From: a virus
IMG/VR virus record: IMGVR_UViG_3300005732_000005
Span: 32,001 to 96,000 of that record
Length of the DNA: 64,000 nt
Direction: 5' to 3' (one strand)
The notes beneath the pieces are model-generated. The model had not been told where the DNA came from. It saw only the letters and a program-made list of their open reading frames with translations, and did no database searches. Position 1 is the first letter of the stretch. Every line of letters starts with the position of its first letter. The translations under genes were made by a program, and so were the position numbers. Below are positions 70 to 51,614 of the stretch, piece by piece.

Positions 70-1605
70 TTATTGCTCATCTTTCACCTCCACAATTTCA
101 CCTGTTTGTTTATTACGTTGAACAGTTTTAAACATATTCTTCTGAATATATTCAATCATCATATCTACTTTCTCCAAAGATGAATCCAATCTTTCAACAA
201 GTCCATCTTTCTTCAAAGATTTGTATGACTTAAGTTCATTATCTTTTAAACTAGATAATAATGCTAAGGATTCTCCAACAATTTCTTCTGACATTTCTTC
301 ATTGAATATCTGATATGGTGCTGTCAACAGATTATTATTTTCAATCTTAGAAGTATCTACTTTGAAAGATTTGCACAACTTAAAGAAGTCCATTTGGTCA
401 TCTAATGATCGTAACATGTATGCTGTTCTAAAGTAGAAATCTATATAAGTCAAAGTATCTACATCTTGCGGATCACCTTTATGGTCAGTATATTGCACTC
501 CGTAAGGAAGTAGTTCTGCAAAAATATCGATAGTTGTTTGCAAAGATTCTTTGGCCGTTTTACAAGGTTTTAATCGTTTATAAACACTGTCTGCACCAAA
601 ACCCATACCTCCGTTCAAATGACCTAATGCACTATAAAAATCTGCCCCATCTCCGACCAAAATTTGCCACAATAAACCTTTAAAACCAATAAACTTATAG
701 TCCGCAGATGTCTCTTTAGGAATAATTTCTATATCCCCTGCCGACTCATTTGTATTAGGTACGCGGAAAGGTTGTGGAAATTTAAACTTACCCTTCTTAG
801 GATGTTCCCCTGAATATGTGTCTGGATTACAAATCAACTTTGCAGAGTTATTACCATCCTTATCACTAAGGATACAAATTTTATTGAACTTACCTGTCTT
901 GTTGTAATTGATAGCACCTAACCACCCCATCATATCCACGTAGTCATCAGTCTCAATGTTTCCGTGGATAGGTGATTCAGGTGTCTCTATGGCCAACCCT
1001 TCCTCTACTGCCCACTGTCTCAATTCTTTTAGAAGAATAGGAGGAAGACTGTCTTTACGATTACCTTTGTATGGTTTGCAAAGCGGAATTAAGTTCCTGA
1101 AATTCTCACCAGAACCGATTACAGTTATGACTTTATTAAGCCCGAATTGTTGCCTTACACGTTTAAGTTTTGTATTAACTTGGATCTGTGCTTGCTTGAA
1201 ACACGCTGACTTTTCACCTTTCAACTTAGAATGCTCTTCTATTGTGAAATCTTCTAAATTGTAAGGTTCTTTACCAGAAGTTTCTCGTTCCAAATTTTTA
1301 AGCCATAACCAAGAGTCCTTTTTAATACCTTTACCTAGCCCCTTAAAAACTTTGATACCTGCTAATTCTTCTGACCAACCATCTTTGTGGATCACCTTGA
1401 TATACTTGGTCTCTTGGTTCTTAGCAGCTTGGAAATACAATGTATCTGCATCGTAGTAAGCTACACAATCATCAGTGATAATATCCTTTAGGTTATCGAT
1501 TTGCCACTCTTTGAATATTGGATTATCACTCTCGTCCCTTTCAAAAGGTTTCTCCTCCTCAACAACACTCTGCTGCGAAGGGGTAAATTTCTTTGTAAAC
1601 GCCAT
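70..1605 (-). CDS. 5'-3' exonuclease (T7 gp6 / PolI 5'-nuclease-like)
   Basis: Acidic motifs YYDADTL, NFR...YKGNRK, ETDD, SDKD and GDGAD match the FEN/5'-nuclease family; GAGGAG SD upstream. Confidence 0.8.
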   Translation of the reverse strand: MAFTKKFTPSQQSVVEEEKPFERDESDNPIFKEWQIDNLKDIITDDCVAYYDADTLYFQAAKNQETKYIKVIHKDGWSEELAGIKVFKGLGKGIKKDSWLWLKNLERETSGKEPYNLEDFTIEEHSKLKGEKSACFKQAQIQVNTKLKRVRQQFGLNKVITVIGSGENFRNLIPLCKPYKGNRKDSLPPILLKELRQWAVEEGLAIETPESPIHGNIETDDYVDMMGWLGAINYNKTGKFNKICILSDKDGNNSAKLICNPDTYSGEHPKKGKFKFPQPFRVPNTNESAGDIEIIPKETSADYKFIGFKGLLWQILVGDGADFYSALGHLNGGMGFGADSVYKRLKPCKTAKESLQTTIDIFAELLPYGVQYTDHKGDPQDVDTLTYIDFYFRTAYMLRSLDDQMDFFKLCKSFKVDTSKIENNNLLTAPYQIFNEEMSEEIVGESLALLSSLKDNELKSYKSLKKDGLVERLDSSLEKVDMMIEYIQKNMFKTVQRNKQTGEIVEVKDEQ

Positions 1606-1727
1606 CTATTCTCCTCAAAATTTCTTATCCCATAATTAATCTTACCAAAATAATCTCTTTAAAGCCAGAACTTTTTGCAAAAAGATTACTTTGAGAAGGG
1701 GAGATCATTTGTCTCCCACAGGGGTTA

Positions 1728-3182
1728 TTAGTTACTAGATTTATTACCCTTAATTACATCTTGGACAAGTTTTGTTGATAATAAGTCACTCACTTGATTG
1801 CCACCAGTATTACCACCCATAACAATGTCTGGAGTGTCAATCTTAACTTGAGGTAATACTTGTGCAATAGCTTTAGCTTCTTCAAGAGACAACTCTGCAA
1901 GATAGATCTTTTCATTAGATGACTTTGCTTCTAGCTTAGCTTTAGCAACAGCAGCCTCTGCAAAACCTTTTTCTTTAGTAGCTTTAGCTTCGTAAAGAGC
2001 GGCTTGGTAGTTAGCAGCTTGAATACCCTCGTTTGCTTCTGCGATTTGCAATTCACGTTGTTTATCAATAATTGCCAGATTAGCTACCTTTTGACGTTCT
2101 ACAGTTTCAATAGCTTCATTATCTTTTGCAATCTGTAACTCACGCTGCTTATCGATCACAGCAAGGTCTGCAACTTTCTGTCGTTCAACCTTCTCTTTAT
2201 CAGCTTGAATTTGAGCTAACTCTACTTGTTTCTGAGCTTGAATTACTTCACGGTCTTTCTCCATAAGTGCTCGGTTCTTGGCGCTGATTCGTGCTGTCTC
2301 ACCTTTAAGTTGTGCGTTTACCGCTGCTTCTCGTTCTTTCCGTTGATCAGCAATCATGTCTGCACGTTCTTTCTCTCGACGTTTAATGGTGGCTACATAC
2401 TCTTGTAAATCAGTCATCGGTGCAAACTCACCCAAATCCACTTGAGAGATAGTGATACCATATTTAGTCAAAGAGTGTGGACGACGAAGAGGAATTCCTT
2501 TATCATCAGTCTGAATCACAACTTTATACTGGAACTGTTTCGCAGTCGCATTCTGGTCACGATTACCTGTTAAAGATTGGTCTGCCACTTGATCTTCAAC
2601 TTCCACCTTCTCTCGACGAGTTTGTAACATACCATTATCAGCTTGGTCTTGTAAACGCTGCTTGAAAGCACCTTTACCACCTTGCATGAAATCTTGTGCT
2701 AAGAATTGGTCGGTTGTTAAACTAAGCATATCTTTGGCAAATGTCTGGAATGTGTTACCTTCTAGATTACGTTGAGATTTAACTTCTTGGTGCATCTGCT
2801 CAAGTTTGTCAGGTGATGTTGAAAGACGTACTCTCCAACAAGCCTCCATCAAACCACCATAGTTGTCTGCAAAAGTGACCATTAACGGAGCACGTACTGC
2901 ACTCGCTGTATTAACAATCTCTTCATCATCACTAACACAAATTGTAGAGACAGCGTTATAAGTATCTACACGAGAGAAGAATGGTACTTTAAATTTCATA
3001 CCCTCTGTTTGATGCCATTCATATTTACCATTCATTGTGTTCTGGATACGGACCATCTCACCACTACTTACTGTTGTGAAACTGCTCATGCCTGTAATAA
3101 ACAAACCTAGGCCGATAGCAACACCCGTTCCATATTTCTTGACTGTTTTCATTACATCTTGTTGCTTAACTTGTTCGTTCAT
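1728..3182 (-). CDS. SPFH/band-7 (flotillin/prohibitin-like) membrane protein
   Basis: N-terminal TM helix, GMKFKVPFFSRV motif, long Ala/Glu/Lys coiled-coil C-terminus. Confidence 0.85.
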   Translation of the reverse strand: MNEQVKQQDVMKTVKKYGTGVAIGLGLFITGMSSFTTVSSGEMVRIQNTMNGKYEWHQTEGMKFKVPFFSRVDTYNAVSTICVSDDEEIVNTASAVRAPLMVTFADNYGGLMEACWRVRLSTSPDKLEQMHQEVKSQRNLEGNTFQTFAKDMLSLTTDQFLAQDFMQGGKGAFKQRLQDQADNGMLQTRREKVEVEDQVADQSLTGNRDQNATAKQFQYKVVIQTDDKGIPLRRPHSLTKYGITISQVDLGEFAPMTDLQEYVATIKRREKERADMIADQRKEREAAVNAQLKGETARISAKNRALMEKDREVIQAQKQVELAQIQADKEKVERQKVADLAVIDKQRELQIAKDNEAIETVERQKVANLAIIDKQRELQIAEANEGIQAANYQAALYEAKATKEKGFAEAAVAKAKLEAKSSNEKIYLAELSLEEAKAIAQVLPQVKIDTPDIVMGGNTGGNQVSDLLSTKLVQDVIKGNKSSN

Positions 3183-3215
3183 ATTTATTTCTCCTCTATC
3201 TAGTTAAGAGACCCT

Positions 3216-3243
3216 ATCTTACCAGAGCCTCATTTATTGTCAA
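3216..3243 (-). promoter_or_regulatory. sigma70-type promoter for the SPFH gene
   Basis: TTGACA-N16-TAAGAT with TG extension and an AT-rich UP element. Confidence 0.6.
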
Positions 3244-3245
3244 TA

Positions 3246-3681
3246 ATTATTTATTGAAAAATTTAATCCCAACCACCTGACGAACTACTACTATCATAGC
3301 TGCTTGAAGAATCTCCCCAAGAACTTGAGCTTGAAGAAGGACTATAACTCGAAGGTGTATAAGACTCTGTAACGTGTGTTTCTACAAAATCATTTAACTT
3401 TGGCTCGTAACTAGAGTTTGAAAGTGTATAACCTCCTTTATCATCTTTATCATAACCTACTTCCTCGAAAGAATTGAAGTCTACAACATAATCTGTATCA
3501 TCCATAATCATTGACCAAAGCAACCACTGATTTAAGCTTGAATCGTACACTTCACGGTGACCGTTGTTATTAATACGACTCTTAGTAAAGTTCTTTGCCT
3601 GATACTTAGGTTTCTTTTTAAAACCGAAAATCTCTTTTAACTTTGTAAACATATACTCTCTTATTATTTATTGAAAAATTT
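3246..3681. repeat. 19-bp direct repeat ATTATTTATTGAAAAATTT flanking ORF 3263-3652
   Basis: Identical copies at 3246-3264 and 3663-3681. Confidence 0.85.
3263..3652 (-). CDS. hypothetical protein with Ser/Gly-rich C-terminal tail
   Basis: 129-aa ORF ending SSSSYDSSSSSGGWD, a tail type common in phage proteins. Confidence 0.7.
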   Translation of the reverse strand: MFTKLKEIFGFKKKPKYQAKNFTKSRINNNGHREVYDSSLNQWLLWSMIMDDTDYVVDFNSFEEVGYDKDDKGGYTLSNSSYEPKLNDFVETHVTESYTPSSYSPSSSSSSWGDSSSSYDSSSSSGGWD

Positions 3682-3764
3682 CTCTTGGCAACTCAGAACT
3701 AGATTACCAACACTCACCACTACCATTACAAATATTACAAAACTTACAATAATGTCTAGCAGCA

Positions 3765-4670
3765 TTAATAATCTACCTCAGTAGCTTCCTTCTCCAAGCT
3801 ATTCACCACTTTCAAAAGGGTTGGTAGTTGGATGATATATTGTCCCATAAAGTTTGCACTTGGAGTAGAGTCTTCATCTTGCTCAAAAGCGTGGTCTTCT
3901 TTAAACTTGATGCCTTTAATCTCAAACTTATTTGTCACCTCAAGCTCTACTACACCATCATAATCTAGCTGAAGTAATTTTACCACTTTGTTACGATTAC
4001 TGATGAACGCCAACACTTCATCATCAGCAGGGTATTCCTTCTTAACACTGATTGTCACTGACTTAGGACTCTTCTCAAACTCACTTTTATCACCAAGGGA
4101 TACCTTCTCCACAAGCATAAATGGATCAGGAAGATGCTTACTTTCGTTGATGATATAGTTTGTCAAAAGCTTCTCTAAAATAGGTGCTTCAAACTCTACA
4201 GGAAGAACATTCTCATAATCACCTTCCATTGCACCAAGAATATAACTCATAACATTATCGACTTTCTTAACACCACCTTCTACCAACAACTTGCTTGTCT
4301 GGTTATCCAGAACAACTAAACTCTGTTGGATAGGTTTGAATCCTTGATAAGGGAGATATTCTTCTCGAAGTTGTAGAATCTTCTCATCAAGTTCCTCATC
4401 TGTATAAGTGTCACCTTCTTTAACTTCACTCTCTAGTTGAGATTTAGCTTCCTGTTCAAGCTGTGTTAGGTCAGGTTCTTTTCGTTCCTGATAAGCCACT
4501 TTGATTAAATCAAAACGGTCAACCTTCTGAACAAAAGTATCATCGAACAAAGGAACAAAACCTAACATAGAGACTTGATTGTTCGTCATTTGACGAAAAT
4601 GGTGTTGTTCGATAAAATCTTGGTTGAAAGATGCTTTGCCTTCGAATTTGAATGTTGTGATTTGCTTCAT
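3765..4670 (-). CDS. rdgC: recombination-associated protein RdgC-like
   Basis: ~300 aa; SMLGFVP motif, V..LQLDYDG..ELEVT....IKGIKF C-terminal pattern as in RdgC. Confidence 0.65.
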   Translation of the reverse strand: MKQITTFKFEGKASFNQDFIEQHHFRQMTNNQVSMLGFVPLFDDTFVQKVDRFDLIKVAYQERKEPDLTQLEQEAKSQLESEVKEGDTYTDEELDEKILQLREEYLPYQGFKPIQQSLVVLDNQTSKLLVEGGVKKVDNVMSYILGAMEGDYENVLPVEFEAPILEKLLTNYIINESKHLPDPFMLVEKVSLGDKSEFEKSPKSVTISVKKEYPADDEVLAFISNRNKVVKLLQLDYDGVVELEVTNKFEIKGIKFKEDHAFEQDEDSTPSANFMGQYIIQLPTLLKVVNSLEKEATEVDY

Positions 4671-4695
4671 ACTACCATTTCTCCTTATATTAATT

Positions 4696-4917
4696 TTAAA
4701 CGTCTGAGGTAACTTTTGCGATTGTAAGTAAAATGATACCTACAACAGTCTGCAATAACCAATAACCTGCATTAGGTAATACAATCTCAAAGAAACCTTG
4801 TTCTGTCTTCACCATTTCGTAGATACTGTAACCTACCCAAATAACAGTGCTTGTTGTTGCTAATAGCCCACCTAATACTAAACTGATGCTTGCAATTAAA
4901 ACTCTTAACACTTCCAT
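4696..4917 (-). CDS. small membrane protein (2 TM)
   Basis: Two hydrophobic segments; AGGAG SD. Confidence 0.7.
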   Translation of the reverse strand: MEVLRVLIASISLVLGGLLATTSTVIWVGYSIYEMVKTEQGFFEIVLPNAGYWLLQTVVGIILLTIAKVTSDV

Positions 4918-4933
4918 AATCTTTCTCCTTATA

Positions 4934-5122
4934 TTAATCTTCTAATAAACCTGAATCTACTAAAGCAACTATCATAGCCGTCATTGCAGCAATATTATCA
5001 TTCTCTTCGGGTGTGGTCAAATACTTTGTAAACTCTTTACGTAAATATTCATACTTCTGCTGCACAGATTCATCTTGCTCAGACATAATACCTTTAGCCA
5101 TAAGTGCGTACATTTCAATCAT
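4934..5122 (-). CDS. hypothetical protein
   Basis: 62-aa ORF with AGGAG SD downstream of a promoter. Confidence 0.65.
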   Translation of the reverse strand: MIEMYALMAKGIMSEQDESVQQKYEYLRKEFTKYLTTPEENDNIAAMTAMIVALVDSGLLED

Positions 5123-5154
5123 ATTGTTTCTCCTTTGTTGTTAAGATAGCGCCC

Positions 5155-5182
5155 ATTTTACAGGACGCTGATTGTTTGTCAA
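5155..5182 (-). promoter_or_regulatory. sigma70-type promoter
   Basis: TTGACA-N16-TAAAAT. Confidence 0.55.
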
Positions 5183-5185
5183 GGG

Positions 5186-6157
5186 TTATTTTGTTACATT
5201 TCTAAAATAATTCTTACGGTCTTCAACTGTGTTTAAGTTGCCACCTTTACGTTGAACCTTACCACAATCTCCACATCTCACTGCCTCAAACACACTTACA
5301 TCAGTATAAGCACGTTCAGTAAGGTCTTCTAAATCTTCACTACCACATACACGGCACGAGGGTTTATCAGAATCTTTATACAAAGAGACATTGGGATGAC
5401 TAGGAATCCATGTACGAATCTTTTTGTAAAGTTCCATACAAGTAGGTATATCCCCTTCATTATACTCATACATAAGATTAAAGGCATCTTTATCGCCATG
5501 CATACAACGTATCCAAAGGTCAATACCATCGTGCTTACGTTTCATATAATCTACTTCAAAGTAACGTGTTGCATAGTCTAAACTATTTGAGGGTAAGCTA
5601 AAAGCTTTCTTCAAACCTTTTGCTGTGCAGATTAACTTATACGGACTTGTTTCAGGGAATCCGTGAAAGGCACATCTCTGGGCAAACCAACCTTGGTCAA
5701 ATTTGGAATTATGTGCAATGGCAATATTACACTCATCCAACACTTTCCACAAAGCTTCTACTAAGAAATAGTCATCAGTGTGGTCATTGTCAAAATGTTC
5801 TTCATAGTCTGTCAGTTTTGCACCAAATACATTATCAGGGTCGCTCATCCAAGCTGCAGCCCATGTAAGCATATAAGGTCGTTGGATAACGTGATCAGGT
5901 GAACTAAAGTGTTTGAACATACTAAACGCTGCTACAATACTTGCACTAACCTCACAATCAAACACTACAATTTTTAAATCTTCTTGATTCTTCTCTGTCT
6001 TAAGAATATTTCCTTTCTTAATATTGTATCGAATAGTGGACTCTTTGGTTCTAGAGCCTAATACTTCTTCCGCAGCATCTCGATGACTACCACCTTTGTT
6101 AAGAATATACTCAATTGCCTCAATCATTTCTTGTGATAAAACTGTTTTTCTTCCCAT
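5186..6157 (-). CDS. RNase H-like (DEDD) 3'-5' exonuclease with N-terminal HTH and C-terminal Zn ribbon
   Basis: VFDCE, AHNSKFD and YNEGD exonuclease motifs; CRVC...CGDC; start moved to ATG 6157 behind GAGGAG. Confidence 0.8.
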   Translation of the reverse strand: MGRKTVLSQEMIEAIEYILNKGGSHRDAAEEVLGSRTKESTIRYNIKKGNILKTEKNQEDLKIVVFDCEVSASIVAAFSMFKHFSSPDHVIQRPYMLTWAAAWMSDPDNVFGAKLTDYEEHFDNDHTDDYFLVEALWKVLDECNIAIAHNSKFDQGWFAQRCAFHGFPETSPYKLICTAKGLKKAFSLPSNSLDYATRYFEVDYMKRKHDGIDLWIRCMHGDKDAFNLMYEYNEGDIPTCMELYKKIRTWIPSHPNVSLYKDSDKPSCRVCGSEDLEDLTERAYTDVSVFEAVRCGDCGKVQRKGGNLNTVEDRKNYFRNVTK

Positions 6158-24007: not shown

Positions 24008-25237
24008 ATGAAAAGCACAATATACACATATGAATTTTTAAAGCGACATGAGATTGTTAAAAGTAAGAGAGCAACGGCCGATCACGGTTATTATGGTGAG
24101 GGTATAACACTGATGTTCCCTGTAGATATTCCCGATAAAACCAAAGGTTTATGGGCAACTAAATGCTTGTGCGGTAATTATTTCACCTGCCAACCCAGTG
24201 ATGTATATCATGCTAGGATTAAAAGCTGCGGCTGCCACATTAAAAGACGTAACAGATTAAAATATACTCTAGAAACAGTATTGTGGAGTATAAAACGAAA
24301 TTATACGCTAGGTTCTTTACCTTCAGAATATAAGAGTAGAGATATAAAATTAAAGTGTAATACTTGTGAAGTGGCTACAGATAAAGGTAATTTAACAGAG
24401 CACCTTATAGGCAACAGGCTTTTCTGTAGATGCGGTAAGACCTACAAAAGATCCTTCTCAGAAGTAAAACATGATTGCGAGGAGTACTTAAGAGAAAATC
24501 CCGAATCACCTTGGAGTATAGAGTCTTATCCAGAAGAAGAATTTACTAGTGTAAAAGATGTTAGGATATCTTTGAAGTGTAACATTTGCTCTCACGAAGT
24601 TGATATGTTATTTGGCAATTTTGTAAGGGGAAAGGGTTGTCAAGGTTGTAGCGATATAGCTTTAAAGAAAAGGATTAGCAAAGACTTGTCGTACTTCTTA
24701 GAAAAGTCTTACGAAACTCATGGTGATAGGTACGATTATAGTAAAGTTGTATACACTAAATGTAGAGAACCTGTTGAAATAGTTTGTAAAGAGCATGGTT
24801 CTTTTTGGCAATCTCCTGATAACCATTACAACAAGGGAAAGGGTTGTAGGAAATGTAACGGTAATAGGTATGTAAACTTTAAAAGAGTTTCTGTAGAAGA
24901 TAATAAAGATTTCTTAAAAAGTAAAGATTCGGGTGTATATGTTCTAAAATCTAACCTAGTAGAAGATTTGTATAAAATAGGTATAAGTGTCGTACCAGAA
25001 CGAAGGTGTAAAGATGTATCTTCGGAAAGCAAACTTGACTTCGAAGTTTTCCACTACAAACCTCTGGACATGTATAATGCGTATATATTAGAGAACAATC
25101 TACACACCGCGTATGATAGTCTTAACTGCAGAGATGATTTCGATAACAAGTTCGCAGGTTATACGGAATGTTTTATATTAGAAGAACAAGACCTGACTGA
25201 TGTAGTAAAATTAATAGATAATTATAAAGAAGGATAA
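24008..25237 (+). CDS. free-standing homing endonuclease (Zn ribbons, DUF723-like domain, C-terminal GIY-YIG/T5orf172)
   Basis: Multiple CxC/CxxC; HGDRYDYSKVVY...VEIVCKEHGSFWQSP..H..GKGC; GVYVL...YKIGIS...R...E..LH...GYTECF. Confidence 0.85.
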   Translation: MKSTIYTYEFLKRHEIVKSKRATADHGYYGEGITLMFPVDIPDKTKGLWATKCLCGNYFTCQPSDVYHARIKSCGCHIKRRNRLKYTLETVLWSIKRNYTLGSLPSEYKSRDIKLKCNTCEVATDKGNLTEHLIGNRLFCRCGKTYKRSFSEVKHDCEEYLRENPESPWSIESYPEEEFTSVKDVRISLKCNICSHEVDMLFGNFVRGKGCQGCSDIALKKRISKDLSYFLEKSYETHGDRYDYSKVVYTKCREPVEIVCKEHGSFWQSPDNHYNKGKGCRKCNGNRYVNFKRVSVEDNKDFLKSKDSGVYVLKSNLVEDLYKIGISVVPERRCKDVSSESKLDFEVFHYKPLDMYNAYILENNLHTAYDSLNCRDDFDNKFAGYTECFILEEQDLTDVVKLIDNYKEG

Positions 25238-25240
25238 TTC

Positions 25241-27338
25241 ATGTCAAAAGATAAACAAGAACCTTTCTTTAAACCTGCAAGTAAAAAACAAGCTCTTATG
25301 TTAAAAAGAGCTTCTGATACTCAAATATTGATTATCGGTGGGGCTTAAAAATCCAGTGGTCACACCTTAAACTATCCTGCTAATTCGGTGGAAGCTAAGT
25401 GTTTATACTAACATACGCCAATACCGAGCCGAATGATTAAATTCATGGGTGTAGAGGTCATCTCGTAAGAGAGTAGAGTTCAAGTGGACTCGAAACGTAG
25501 GACTGTATACCAATACAGAAGATATGATCCGACAACACAGGAAACTGTGGAAAGAGTGTAACGACTCTAAAACTGTCTCAGATTAAAGGCTGGTTCTGGG
25601 AAAAGTACGATATTAAATCACCTGCCTCTTATGTTACTAGATGACCCCAAAACAAACTGCATCTTGTATCGTAGGACAAATCCTCAACTGTTAGGTGGTC
25701 TTTGGCCTAATGCTAGAGGAATTTACGAAAAACTTCCAAAAGCTTATGAACCTAAGGCTATAAGAGATCATAAGATGGAAGTAGTATTTAAGAATGGAGC
25801 TAAAATAAAATATCAACAAGCGGAGAACGTGGCTAAATCTAAGAATGATGCTCAAGGTCAGGAGTTCACGTTTGTCGGAATAGATAAAATTTGTCTATTT
25901 GAAAGGTTTTTAGCATAATTATTTTAATGATTATAACCTTTCTGGAAAAATTGTGTGAATTCGGTGGAACTCTTTGTAAGACAATACCGAGCCAAGGTTA
26001 CGGGGTAACTCGTTTCAAGGTGTAACGACTAGAGAATACGAACCTAGAGGGTTTATGAATCTCGTACAGCCAAGTGGTAGCGAAAGCTTTAAATGGAAGC
26101 GCACAAACTCTAGCTAAAAGAGTAAGATATAGTCTCAACTTCTACGGTGACGTAGAGATGCAGGTAATGCTGCTGGTAAAGATTAACGAACTTTATTGAA
26201 GATATTGGAAGGTACACAATTCGAGTGGGAACAAATAGAGTACTTTATGTCACGTCTACGTTCCCCCTCAAAACACTTCTCCCGTATGGTAATCTCATGT
26301 AACCCCGACCCCGACCATTATATTAGGACGATGATCGACTGGTACTTAGACGAATCTGGTTATGCTATACCTGAAAGAGATGGGGTAGTAAGATACTTCG
26401 TACAGGAAGGTGGTGAGTATGTATGGGGTAATTCTAAAAAAGAGTTAGGTGAAAAGTTAAATTTACCTAAAGATCGTTGGGAAGATAAGATCCTCAGCTT
26501 CTCGTTTGTTAGTGGGACGATCTACGATAATCCGATTATGATGGAGATTAACCCGTCATACTTAGCTTTCTTAGAAGGTCTTAACGATGTCGATAAGGCA
26601 CAGTTACTTCACGGATGTTGGGATGCCAGACCTCAAGGTGCTAATTACTGGCAAAGAGAATGGGTAACGGAGATACAATCTAAAGATGTAGACCTAAGTT
26701 CTATGAGAAAGGTAAGAACATACGATTTAGCGGCAACAGAACGTAGTCAGGTAAATAAAAGCCCTGACCCAACAGCTTGTGCTCTTATGTGTAAAGACCG
26801 TAATGGTTATTATTACATTGCAGGTAACTATCATCCAGATTTTTATGATGACTACTATGAGATATATGGTCAATTCTGTAAACGTTCTGGGGATAGGGAT
26901 ATGCATATAATAAAACAAGGTCATCATGACACAGATGATACTGTAATCTTGTTGCCAGTGGATTGTGGCGCTGCAGGTAAGACGGCTTTCACTGCCATGG
27001 CTTCAAACTTTATGCAAGAAGGCTTTACAGTAAAGGCTGACCCTACTCCAAACAACAAGACAAAATTGGTAAAATTTCAGCCATTTGCAACGGCAACAGA
27101 GAACGGGCTTGTATATGTGTTGGTAGATACTTTTGATAAGAAGACTTTAGAGTTTATATACAAACAACTAGAAGCTTTTGATGGAGAAAGGTCTACAGCC
27201 ACAAAACATGATGAATTTCCAGATCTATTGGCGAGCGGGTATAACTATCTCTCAAGAGAACGTGTCATCAAACCCTTCTCCCTTCCAGATTGTTCCTCCT
27301 CCACAAAATACACTTCTTATCGAAACTCGATAAAATAA
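25241..27338 (+). CDS. terL: terminase large subunit, spliced: join(25241..25345,25589..25885,26208..27338), 510 aa
   Basis: Splicing restores Walker A IIGGA|AGSGKS and Walker B FVGID|EGTQF in frame; coupling motif SCNP; RNase H nuclease motifs YDLAAT and HDEFPD. Confidence 0.93.
25346..25588 (+). mobile_element. group I intron 1 (243 nt, ORF-less) in TerL Walker A
   Basis: 5' exon ends in U, intron ends in G; P element AATTCGGTGGAA, Q element AATACCGAGC, P3 TCCTGC/GTAGGA, P7 GGTCAT/ATGATC with AAGATAT; IGS CCAGT pairs with 3' exon GCTGG (P10). Confidence 0.9.
25886..26207 (+). mobile_element. group I intron 2 (322 nt, ORF-less) in TerL Walker B
   Basis: P1 ATAGAT/GTCTAT with U-G at the splice site; P AATTCGGTGGAA, Q AATACCGAGC, R GTAACGACTA, S AAGATATAGTC, P3 TTGTGTG/CGCACAA; terminal G. 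Confidence 0.92.
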
Positions 27339-31588: not shown

Positions 31589-32635
31589 ATGGCAGATATC
31601 CGTCAAGGCGAACAGGGTTTACAGAATTTTACACCACTTATGGACTTAGTTCCTCGCCAAGAGAACATGCTACAACGTATGGGTCTATTCTCTGTAGTAG
31701 AATACACAACTGAGAAAGTAACTGAGTTTGAACGTCGAGTTCTTGGTATTGATACTATGTACTCTGTTGAGCGTGGTGCTGATCGTCAGTATGCTGGTGA
31801 TGAAGGCGCGCAAACAGCGTTACTAAAAATTCCATTCTTCACGTTAGATAAAGTTATCAAGCCTAGCGATGTTGACCAACTACGTGAGTTCTTAACAGCT
31901 ACTGATCCAGAGACAGTTCGTAGCCGTGTTGAGAAAGTTATTGCTCGTATCCAACGTGGTCACGTAGAGTTACACAAGAATGTAATGTATGAAGCACTAG
32001 TTAGTAACTCTACTTATGCTAAAGATCGTGCTGGTAATGACCGTGCTGGTTATGTTAAGAACTTCCAAACAGCTTTCGAAGTTGCTGATGCTGATATGTA
32101 CAACGGTGCGGCTAACGGTGCTAAGACTATCGACCTAGATGACCAAACTATTAACCCAGCAGATGAGTTTGAATTGTTCCGTAAGCACGTATTCAATAAA
32201 GCTGGTGATGGTGGTGACAACTATCGTCTAGTAGTGTTAATGGGTAGCGGTTCATTCACTAAGCTTAAGAATCACTCAGACTACGTAGAAGCTTTTGCTA
32301 ACTATGCTTCTAACGAAGAGCCTTTACGTCAACGTTTAGGTGGTCTACGTACTTCACGTGTTCTTGAGTGGCAGGGTGTTACTTACATCGAAGATGTTTC
32401 TGGTAAGATTGATGATGACAAGATTATCGGTTTCCCACTAGATATGGAAGATATGTTCCAACTTCACTATGGTCATGCTGACACTATCGCTGCTCAGAAT
32501 GGTGATGAGGCTGTTTCAGAAGCTTACCTTTACATCAACGAAACCGATGCTCGTAAGGTTGGCGTTGAAAGTGAAGCTGCTCTTGTGGCATGTATCACAC
32601 GTCCTGAGTTGATCGCTCGTTGGACAGAATCATAA
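31589..32635 (+). CDS. major capsid protein (lambda gpE-like HK97 fold)
   Basis: 348 aa; LQRMGLF, VERGA, IPFF, C-terminal CITRPEL; high-expression codon bias; synteny. Confidence 0.9.
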   Translation: MADIRQGEQGLQNFTPLMDLVPRQENMLQRMGLFSVVEYTTEKVTEFERRVLGIDTMYSVERGADRQYAGDEGAQTALLKIPFFTLDKVIKPSDVDQLREFLTATDPETVRSRVEKVIARIQRGHVELHKNVMYEALVSNSTYAKDRAGNDRAGYVKNFQTAFEVADADMYNGAANGAKTIDLDDQTINPADEFELFRKHVFNKAGDGGDNYRLVVLMGSGSFTKLKNHSDYVEAFANYASNEEPLRQRLGGLRTSRVLEWQGVTYIEDVSGKIDDDKIIGFPLDMEDMFQLHYGHADTIAAQNGDEAVSEAYLYINETDARKVGVESEAALVACITRPELIARWTES

Positions 32636-50360: not shown

Positions 50361-51614
50361 TTGAGAGGAATAGAAGATAGTTTTACAGGTACAAAGTTTG
50401 ATACTCCTAAAGGAGGTGTACTTACTGTGCTAGGTCATAATGGTTTGGCAGGGAATAAGAGGAAGTATTTCGTTGAGTGCAACATTTGTAGCAAGGATGA
50501 GGAGTTATTTCCTGATGGTTTTGTCTCCAGTAAAGGTAACCTTTTAATTGGTAGGATTCCGTGTGGCTGTGCTGTTAGTACTAAGTGGACGGAAGATCAA
50601 AGAATTGTCCAGATAAAACGGAAGTGTGAAGAGAGGGGTTACGATTTTCTAGGGTTGGCAGAAGAGTTTAAAGGTGGTCGTACTAAATTGAAGTTGTACA
50701 ATCCCAAAACAAACAATACTTGGGAAAGTTCAAATATAACAGGTTTCCTTCGAGGAAGTGGAGATCCTATTGAAGGGTTTTTGAAAACTAAGGAGGCTAG
50801 TACTTCACTTGATGAGGTACACATTGAAGAGTTTATTAAGACAGGTAAGTTCTTAGAAGGCACAACCTTCACACGTAATACAACTAAGAAGGATTCTAGA
50901 GGAAGGTATCCGTACTGGGATGTAATATGTCCTTTGTGCAGTGATGATGAATACGTGAAGAATCGTGTATGTTCTGGTATTTTTTCATGCGCGACCAGTC
51001 ACCTTAAAAGGGGTAAACTTACCTGCAGGTGCTCCAAAACTTACCGTTGGACACAAGATCAAAGAGAGTATCAAATCGGAAAAGTATGCTCGCAAGAAAA
51101 CCTTACTTTCATTGGTTGGGAGGGAGAGTATAAAAACTGTAAAAGTAAATTTAATTGGAAGTGCTCAGAAGGCCATAGGAACGTAACTTCTTTAAATGAT
51201 TTCTTAAAAGGTATCAGATGTACACAATGTTTTCAAGAATACTCGGTTATTAACGGTTATTACCCTGACCGAACGAAAGAACAAGATTACTTATATATCT
51301 ACTATTTATCTGAGGAGAATTATCTAAAGGTAGGAAGAAGCTTCAACTTAAGCCGAAGGCAAAAAGAGAACCAAATACGTATAAATAACTACAACCCACA
51401 TTCAAAAATACGTGTCCTTAAAACCTTTACAGGTACTCACAAAGATATATACGATCTTGAACAAAAAATCCTATCTGACTTGAAAAGTTTCCAAGTAAAT
51501 GGTTACGGTTCGAGTGAATTATTGTCTGTAGAAGCCTTACCTTCTATATGGAATATCATTAATAGTTGTCAGGAAGTGACTCTATACCAAAATAAACTTA
51601 TAAAAGAGGAATAA
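50361..51614 (+). CDS. free-standing homing endonuclease (CapR-like Zn domains plus C-terminal GIY-YIG/T5orf172)
   Basis: Two C..CS.DE...F......L..G...C.C repeats; YLYIY...YLKVGRSFN..RR...E..I...GSSE; probable TTG start behind GAGGAGG. Confidence 0.8.
   Translation: MRGIEDSFTGTKFDTPKGGVLTVLGHNGLAGNKRKYFVECNICSKDEELFPDGFVSSKGNLLIGRIPCGCAVSTKWTEDQRIVQIKRKCEERGYDFLGLAEEFKGGRTKLKLYNPKTNNTWESSNITGFLRGSGDPIEGFLKTKEASTSLDEVHIEEFIKTGKFLEGTTFTRNTTKKDSRGRYPYWDVICPLCSDDEYVKNRVCSGIFSCATSHLKRGKLTCRCSKTYRWTQDQREYQIGKVCSQENLTFIGWEGEYKNCKSKFNWKCSEGHRNVTSLNDFLKGIRCTQCFQEYSVINGYYPDRTKEQDYLYIYYLSEENYLKVGRSFNLSRRQKENQIRINNYNPHSKIRVLKTFTGTHKDIYDLEQKILSDLKSFQVNGYGSSELLSVEALPSIWNIINSCQEVTLYQNKLIKEE

Follow-up and report, generated by a model that had tools for sequence, protein, structure and literature searches.

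Structure of the terL gene

The 64,000-nucleotide (nt) stretch of DNA analyzed here, referred to as the window, comprises positions 32,001 to 96,000 of the virus record IMGVR_UViG_3300005732_000005, a 140,374-bp genome of an uncultured virus with terminal repeats. Between positions 25241 and 27338, the window contains terL, the gene of the terminase large subunit (TerL), divided into three exons by two group I introns that do not contain open reading frames (ORFs). The parts of the gene are listed below; here and in the text, a slash within a motif marks a splice junction.

25241..25345, + strand: terL exon 1, 105 nt, 35 residues, with the initial half of the P-loop of Walker A (..IIGGA) at its end
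25346..25588, + strand: group I intron 1, 243 nt, without ORF, recognized by its Rfam match, homology to the phage ICP1 intron and covariation
25589..25885, + strand: terL exon 2, 297 nt, 99 residues, starting with the remaining half of Walker A (AGSGKS) and ending at the aspartate of Walker B (..VGID)
25886..26207, + strand: group I intron 2, 322 nt, without ORF, recognized by its Rfam match and by the intron-minus allele of the related record L139
26208..27338, + strand: terL exon 3, 1131 nt, 376 residues and stop codon, starting with the Walker B glutamate (EGTQF..)

The ORF listing of the region contains only fragments of 35, 95, and 380 residues, all on the + strand, as a preliminary description of the locus had reported. 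Joining of segments 25241-25345, 25589-25885, and 26208-27338 produces a stop-free sequence with a length that is a multiple of three, which encodes a TerL of 510 residues. The P-loop reads ..ILIIGGA/AGSGKST.. across junction 1, and the Walker B motif reads ..FTFVGID/EGTQFEW.. across junction 2. The motifs GAAGSGKS and GIDE appear solely after the joining of the exons. In Walker A, intron 1 separates the codon of A35 from that of A36; in Walker B, intron 2 separates the codon of D134 from that of E135. The base preceding each intron is U (GGGGCT/ and ATAGAT/), and the last base of each intron is G (TTAAAG/ and ATATTG/), both of which had been noted. The preliminary description had derived the 510-residue product, with GGA/AGSGKS and GID/E restored, from removal of 25346-25588 and 25886-26207, and had named junctions that fail to restore the frame as one outcome that would speak against it. 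The removal is exact to the base, the predicted junctions are correct, and the frame is restored.

The joined product is a terminase large subunit of the Terminase_6 type, with matches to both the ATPase and the nuclease domain. Exon 2 covers positions 7-103 of the Pfam profile Terminase_6N (PF03237) and exon 3 positions 104-214, and the location of junction 2 is exact to the position. The Terminase_6C nuclease domain (PF17289) follows the Terminase_6N match on exon 3; this exon encodes the RNaseH-like nuclease domain as well as what remains of the ATPase domain. The sequence identity to the annotated TerL proteins of PS17B-2 and PH357 is 62-63%. The uninterrupted 508-residue TerL of Vibrio phage PS17B-2 (62% identical) is colinear with the joined product across both junctions, and exon 1 aligns with its N-terminus. 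Exon 3 is colinear with the TerL proteins of PS17B-2, PH357, and phiTE. The central proposal of the preliminary description, that terL is split by two group I introns at the codons of Walker A and Walker B, is borne out by the exon joining, the Pfam matches, and the colinearity with PS17B-2, together with the covariation in intron 1 and the L139 allele described below.

Fold of intron 1

The following elements were assigned in the structure drawn for intron 1.

25358-25365, + strand: P1 internal guide sequence
25375-25380 and 25497-25502, + strand: P3
25384-25389 and 25423-25428, + strand: P4
25456-25461 (GGTCAT) and 25524-25529 (ATGATC), + strand: P7

The intron additionally contains helices P7.1, P7.2, P8, P9, and P9.1, and its terminal G is at position 25588. 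The structure was evaluated on an alignment of nine sequences, which included the window and eight terL homologs with an intron at the Walker A site (PH357, 1.161.O, ICP1, IBT_VpB-34, P018-4, Barba1A, one IMG/VR contig, and R16F). Standard base pairs occupy 90% of the 541 cells of the alignment, vs 38-42% if the pairing partners are slid by one to three columns. The structure (P1 and P3-P9.1; 14 helices) was drawn on the window sequence, which is itself part of the alignment; this somewhat favors the fit, yet the margin is large. Compensatory changes of both bases were found in 37 of the 62 pairs, and none of 500 shuffled alignments was as good. Pairing is retained across the alignment in P3 (100%), P7 (98%), P8 (89%), P9 (100%), and P7.2 (94%). 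The pairs of P8, P9, P7.1, and P9.1 are nearly all compensatory, including three out of three in P7.1. The variant P7 of intron 1, GGTCAT with ATGATC, had been recognized in the preliminary description, and covariation confirms it: the paired cells include two compensatory pairs, with UA/CG and CG/UA exchanges. Of the eight pairs of P1, seven are formed, and all eight homologs keep U.G at the splice site. The glycine codon immediately preceding this site covaries at its wobble base with the guide (AU in three sequences, GC in two, and UA in one). The group I core P3-P9 of intron 1, with its P3/P7 pseudoknot, is thus backed by covariation.

In the Michel-Westhof classification, group I introns of subgroup IA are distinguished by the extra helices P7.1 and P7.2 between P7 and the 3' strand of P3. 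Intron 1 contains both of these helices. Its sequence is similar to that of the terL intron of Vibrio phage ICP1, with an identity of 76.6% according to blastn and 83% in a local alignment.

Intron 2 and its natural intron-minus allele

The elements located in intron 2 are as follows.

25893-25898, + strand: internal guide sequence GTCTAT
25901-25908 and 25935-25942, + strand: P2, 8 bp, from the P1/P2 fold
25951-25957 and 26100-26106, + strand: P3
25960-25965 and 25986-25991, + strand: P4
26027-26031 (GACTA) and 26130-26134 (TAGTC), + strand: P7
26142-26155, + strand: P9, with the terminal G of the intron at 26207

The guide sequence pairs with the exon sequence ATAGAT through six pairs including the U.G at the splice site, and the minimum free energy fold agrees with this pairing. 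A search with a group I model had been suggested as a check, and both introns matched the Rfam group I covariance model RF00028, for which the gathering score is 50 bits. Intron 2 is above this score (65 bits, E 3e-14) and intron 1 below it. In the alignment of intron 2 to the model, P3, P4-P6, P8, and P9 are formed with few non-canonical pairs. A 66-nt insertion is present between P7 and the 3' strand of P3, where P7.1 and P7.2 are located in intron 1.

The closest relative of the window, the IMG/VR record L139, has a TerL with 83% amino acid identity and a DNA identity of about 80-88%. In L139, exactly the 322 nt of intron 2 are absent, and window positions 25884/5 are joined to 26207/8, while intron 1 is present. 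L139 is therefore a natural intron-minus allele for intron 2. Residues 121-150 of the window's TerL are 65-80% identical to phiTE and Mangalyan, vs 45-55% to PS17B-2 and PH357, the overall nearest relatives of the window. An exon co-conversion tract around intron 2 was considered and is not claimed; the signal is ambiguous, since this exon sequence also occurs in L139, where intron 2 is absent.

The closest GenBank relative of intron 2 is the first intron hit of Pseudoalteromonas phage H101 (KR534323). At positions 2455-4272 of the H101 record, five group I matches follow one another in a space of about 1.8 kb; they are separated by tiny ORFs only, and the last match includes an HNH gene. Judged from these matches, the region is a string of introns with mini-exons in one gene.

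The two introns of the window share the identical cores AATTCGGTGGAA...CAATACCGAGCC that had been noticed previously. Across the window, the cores are found at 25382-25430 and 25958-25993 and nowhere else, against a chance expectation of zero. In local alignment, the introns share only a 12-nt identical stretch and are otherwise not close copies of each other. Local alignments were used because the global pairwise identities are uninformative, reaching 74-80% for any pair of introns once gaps are allowed. In IMG/VR, the same core is present at more than 119 loci spread over many other genes, and only one of these loci is in terL. Because the core is so widespread, its presence in both introns is a family trait and no sign of duplication; a recent duplication, considered on account of the identical cores, was ruled out.

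Introns in the terL genes of related phages

The terL genes of relatives contain from zero to four introns each, at about eight sites, and nearly all gaps in the TerL protein alignments coincide with Rfam group I matches. PS17B-2 terL has no introns. The Walker A intron occurs alone in PH357, L139, ICP1, and Barba1A, and in combination with a Walker B intron at the D/E junction in the window, P018-4, and L141/L142. The introns of P018-4 and L141 at this D/E site, which is that of intron 2, are also ORF-less. L140 combines a Walker A intron with one positioned 6 nt further downstream than D/E (DEG/TQF), and the DEG/TQF site alone is occupied in Mangalyan. The terL of R16F contains four introns, none of them at the Walker B site, and those of L144 and L145 contain three or more at other sites. 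The Walker A site is uninterrupted in PS17B-2 and L144, and the Walker B site in PH357 and L139. Insertions at the codons of Walker A and Walker B recur among TerL lineages with an identity of only about 30%. Judged from these comparisons, terL of the marine Vibrio/Pseudoalteromonas myophage group is a hotspot of group I introns.

The Walker A intron family has a nucleotide identity of 77-90% between phages, vs the 29% identity of the TerL proteins of the window and ICP1. That the introns are far more similar than these proteins points to horizontal spread of the family. The Walker A intron of L140 is 90% identical to intron 1, and the core of the second L140 intron is 80% identical to that of intron 2, from which it differs in the 5' P1-P2 part with the guide sequence and in its position 6 nt away. 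The same ribozyme core has therefore been re-targeted by 6 nt through a change of P1 and the guide. The TerL encoded at positions 2556-4613 of L140 (IMGVR_UViG_3300030390_001877) is a mosaic, with exon 2 89% identical to that of the window and the last exon only 60% identical, a pattern that suggests recombination in which the sequences were exchanged at the introns or close to them.

The variable intron content bears on the reason for the persistence of the introns. The preliminary description regarded the two splicing events as a possible timing checkpoint. According to this explanation, the introns would be kept to regulate packaging, and splicing that depends on GTP and translation would act as a timing or energy checkpoint, a "molecular on-switch" holding TerL back to the late phase of infection. 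Any TerL would indeed require the removal of both introns, and the hypothesis is already in print, together with the late splicing of a terL intron in phage phiAGATE (PMC11878797). However, close relatives do without one or both of the introns: intron 2 is missing from L139, and no Walker A intron is present in PS17B-2 and L144. As described above, relatives differ in how many introns they have and at which sites, related introns are found in many unrelated genes, and neither a regulatory element in the sequence nor a sign of regulation in the comparisons was found. We consider the checkpoint very unlikely. Selfish mobile elements give a pattern of zero to four introns at many sites among relatives, and the variable presence, number, and sites of the introns and their unrelated host genes therefore fit parasitism and not a conserved regulatory device.

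Two of the relatives show further peculiarities. In Vibrio phage vB_VpaM_R16F (OP793884), positions 1095-3585 are annotated as five "terminase large subunit" coding sequences, and the four gaps between them are group I introns scoring 72-94 bits; the paper describing the phage mentions neither the terminase nor introns (PMC10152775). In PS17B-2 (OZ196882), positions 2778-5498 include, next to the intron-free terL, a portal gene that is apparently fragmented, an HNH endonuclease, and a further "endonuclease" coding sequence, and a weak group I match is located in the portal region at 3458-3611. The intron load seems to shift between neighboring essential genes.

The putative endonuclease gene upstream of terL

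The gene preceding terL may encode a homing endonuclease.

24008..25237, + strand: putative free-standing homing endonuclease, 409 residues, with a T5orf172/MUG113 nuclease domain and a zinc-finger region

The gene ends 3 nt before the terL start codon. The protein matches the Pfam families PF13455 (2.7e-9) and PF10544 (6.1e-8) and is colinear with TcgB (gp130) of ICP1, with an identity of 23% over 368 residues (BLASTP, E 1e-15). A 63% identical homolog occupies the same position in L139. The arrangement typical of collaborative homing, in which a free-standing endonuclease gene adjoins an intron-bearing gene, is thus present, with 24008-25237 next to terL.

Probable splicing and mobility of the introns

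Exon 1 ends inside the P-loop, ribosomes reading through its end in an unspliced transcript would encounter a TAA immediately, and exon 2 has no start codon ahead of Walker A. Therefore, an intact TerL, and with it DNA packaging, would need both splicing events, which supports the dependence put forward in the preliminary description. The terL transcript of ICP1, which contains a homolog of intron 1, was shown to be spliced by RNA-seq, reverse transcription PCR (RT-PCR), and Sanger sequencing (Barth, Dunham and Seed 2023; PMC10448857). The immediate TAA, the exon 2 without a start codon, the implausibility of a split P-loop, and the spliced ICP1 homolog strongly indicate that the introns are spliced in the phage of the window.

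We consider it highly likely that terL of the window carries two ORF-less, self-splicing group I introns of subgroup IA in its Walker A and Walker B motifs, and that these are selfish mobile elements located beside a TcgB-like endonuclease gene. The fold, the exact boundaries, the restored frame, the homology to a spliced intron, and the presence/absence polymorphism are observed; the splicing in this phage, the activity and target of the endonuclease, and the mode of mobility are inferred.

Based on these data, a mechanism can be outlined. Each intron would fold after transcription, and its internal guide would base-pair to the end of the preceding exon, forming U.G at the splice site. Attack by an external guanosine would follow, and the exons would be ligated after removal of the intron behind its terminal G. 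Only the doubly spliced mRNA would encode the 510-residue TerL. As selfish elements, the introns would occupy those codons of an essential gene that are conserved best. Such codons could provide sites that homing endonucleases recognize across diverged phages, and imprecise loss of an intron there would be lethal. The TcgB-like T5orf172 gene would be the third selfish element in this hotspot. In co-infections, its product may cut alleles that lack the intron and thereby mobilize intron 1 together with flanking terL sequence. Intron 2, which has no endonuclease of its own, may be a relic of an endonuclease-bearing intron like that of phiTE and CB7, or may be mobilized in trans. The dependence of TerL on both splicing events would be a by-product of parasitism.

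Several observations weigh against this interpretation. The genome is known from a record of an uncultured virus, and its viability is an assumption. The score of intron 1 against RF00028 is 43.7 bits (E 1.4e-9), under the gathering score. A search of sequencing runs located a small share of the sequence in one estuary metatranscriptome (X2) and in one DNA run (X1), and no contig of either spans a junction. The X2 contigs cover only parts of exons and none lie on the introns, and one contig of 218 nt ends exactly at 26208, the first base of exon 3; they come from a single study and were counted neither for nor against splicing. With regard to mobility, PS17B-2 and L144 have the upstream endonuclease and lack the Walker A intron, and a homolog of the endonuclease was not detected in the intron-bearing L140, L143, P018-4, IBT_VpB-34, and Barba1A. 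Both elements are present in six genomes, the endonuclease alone in two, and the intron alone in at least five. The endonuclease and intron 1 are loosely linked, and the strict co-occurrence that was considered as support for collaborative homing was not found among the relatives. Because of this loose association, collaborative homing is only one possibility. That intron 1 moves together with the TcgB-like endonuclease, the activity and target of which are putative, is a tentative idea that we find possible but lean slightly against.

The uncultured origin of the genome, the score of intron 1, and the lack of spliced RNA among the X2 contigs would also fit the explanation that one or both insertions are splicing-dead. 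The terL would then be a pseudogene in a defective or misassembled genome, or TerL would be produced as separate polypeptides that assemble, as in the precedent of the NrdA of phage Aeh1, which is split by mobE. However, all exons are intact and in frame and align colinearly with functional homologs, the helices of the catalytic core are intact and covarying, and the homologous ICP1 intron splices. A split protein is implausible, because its first fragment of 35 residues would break off within the P-loop and exon 2 offers no start codon before Walker A. Also against this explanation stands an independent 567-nt contig from the DNA run X1, which is 98% identical to the window and includes intron 1; this contig shows only that intron 1 is present in the DNA of a close relative. 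We regard the splicing-dead explanation as highly unlikely.

Exon 2 comprises exactly 99 codons, and the joining of exon 1 to exon 3 would therefore stay in frame and produce a protein of 411 residues. This TerL would lack the stretch from Walker A to Walker B and would be nuclease-bearing but ATPase-dead, and the pair of introns could tune the ratio of active to inactive protein. Exon skipping has precedents in Twort orf142 and the SIOphi terminase. We deem such tuning in the window highly improbable; if it did take place, exon skipping combined with GTP- and translation-dependent splicing would be a real regulatory use of both ribozymes, beyond parasitism.

Other introns and putative endonucleases in the genome

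Further group I introns are present in the genome outside the window. One of them, at G000:C1:21924-22140 on the - strand (locus L132), is in nrdA. The ORFs flanking it match positions 1-211 and 224-422 of Ribonuc_red_lgC, and the upstream ORF additionally contains glutaredoxin and ATP-cone domains. At G000:C1:112821-113657, also on the - strand (L133/L135), two group I matches of 74.9 and 33.5 bits are about 400 nt apart. The surrounding ORFs did not match any Pfam family, and the locus is probably another multi-intron gene. Two more genes with a T5orf172 domain are located at window positions 51294-51497 (G000 83294-83497) and at G000 130025-130282, in frames of 437 and 108 residues, respectively. 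The genome thus has three putative homing endonucleases of the T5orf172 family in total.

Consequences for annotation

Gene callers miss the 510-residue TerL of the phage of the window and the TerL of many of its relatives, taking the large ORF of the 3' exon for the whole gene. In public records, the short exon 1 of terL is labeled "hypothetical protein". Dozens of Vibrio phage records start inside or just after intron 1, and the gene is cut across the record ends. For example, base 1 of the GenBank records OZ195714 (F100, about 14 siblings) and OZ196312 (K470 and siblings) is in or just after the Walker A intron of terL, and exon 1 and the 5' part of the intron are at the far end of the record, labeled hypothetical. 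TerL is a standard marker for phage phylogeny and for the prediction of packaging mode. Therefore, truncated or fragmented TerL sequences distort both. The main value of the locus is in annotation and comparative work, and no new mechanism is revealed. The terL hotspot provides a natural data set for the study of intron homing, the choice of insertion sites, and the role of free-standing T5orf172 endonucleases.

Comparison with known systems

The preliminary description held that terL introns are less common among phages than those in genes of nucleotide metabolism and polymerases. This is true, but it understates the published cases, given ICP1 (PMC10448857), CB7 (PMC7344957), Shewanella phage KASIA, for which splicing of the terL intron was published (PMC8541194), and the Bastillevirinae (PMC11878797). 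For Bastillevirinae and Twort-like phages of Bacillus and Staphylococcus, terL genes with two or three group I introns have been described; self-splicing was demonstrated both in vitro and in vivo, skipping of exons was seen, and a role as "molecular on-switches" was proposed (PMC11878797). As in the window, terL is split by several group I introns. In contrast to the window, these phages belong to unrelated Gram-positive lineages, and most of their introns, averaging about 800 nt, carry endonuclease genes. The positions of the introns relative to Walker motifs are not discussed in that paper.

The terL intron of Pectobacterium phage CB7 is spliced, as shown by RT-PCR and Sanger sequencing, and it is listed as common to phiTE and CB7 (Buttimer et al. 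2020; PMC7344957). In the Certrevirus phiTE, the TerL of which is 49% identical to that of the window, an HNH-bearing terL intron is located at the same D/E junction of Walker B as intron 2 (..GVD/EGTQF..). However, the CB7/phiTE intron is about 970 nt long and contains the HNH gene, whereas the 322-nt intron 2 is ORF-less and not closely related to it. Unlike the window, these phages have no Walker A intron. Vibrio phage P018-4 (PP934186) has unannotated ORF-less group I introns at both the Walker A and the D/E site. It shares a TerL identity of only about 29% with the window, and the sequences of its Walker B intron and of intron 2 are unrelated. The two-intron terL of L140 is likewise unannotated, and its introns are related to both introns of the window, but the second is at DEG/TQF and has another guide.

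Pairs of an ORF-less intron and a neighboring free-standing endonuclease include, as cited in PMC10448857, the cyanophage psbA intron with F-CphI and the DNA polymerase intron of T3-like phages. The window resembles them in its ORF-less intron and in the endonuclease gene adjoining the interrupted gene. It differs from them in the imperfect co-occurrence of endonuclease and intron among its relatives, and cleavage of the intron-less site by its endonuclease is putative.

Vibrio phage ICP1 has only one terL intron, its splicing was established experimentally whereas that in the window is deduced, and its TerL is distant from that of the window, as described above. The T5orf172 gene next to exon 1 of ICP1 was noted, and collaborative homing was discussed for that phage (PMC10448857). 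The layout of the ICP1 record, with tcgB, a 34-codon terL exon, the intron, and a large exon, is that of the window. Both phages have an insertion at the same point of Walker A (GGA/AG.GKS), homologous ORF-less introns with the same GATCAT-type P7, and a gene of a TcgB-like endonuclease that ends just before exon 1.

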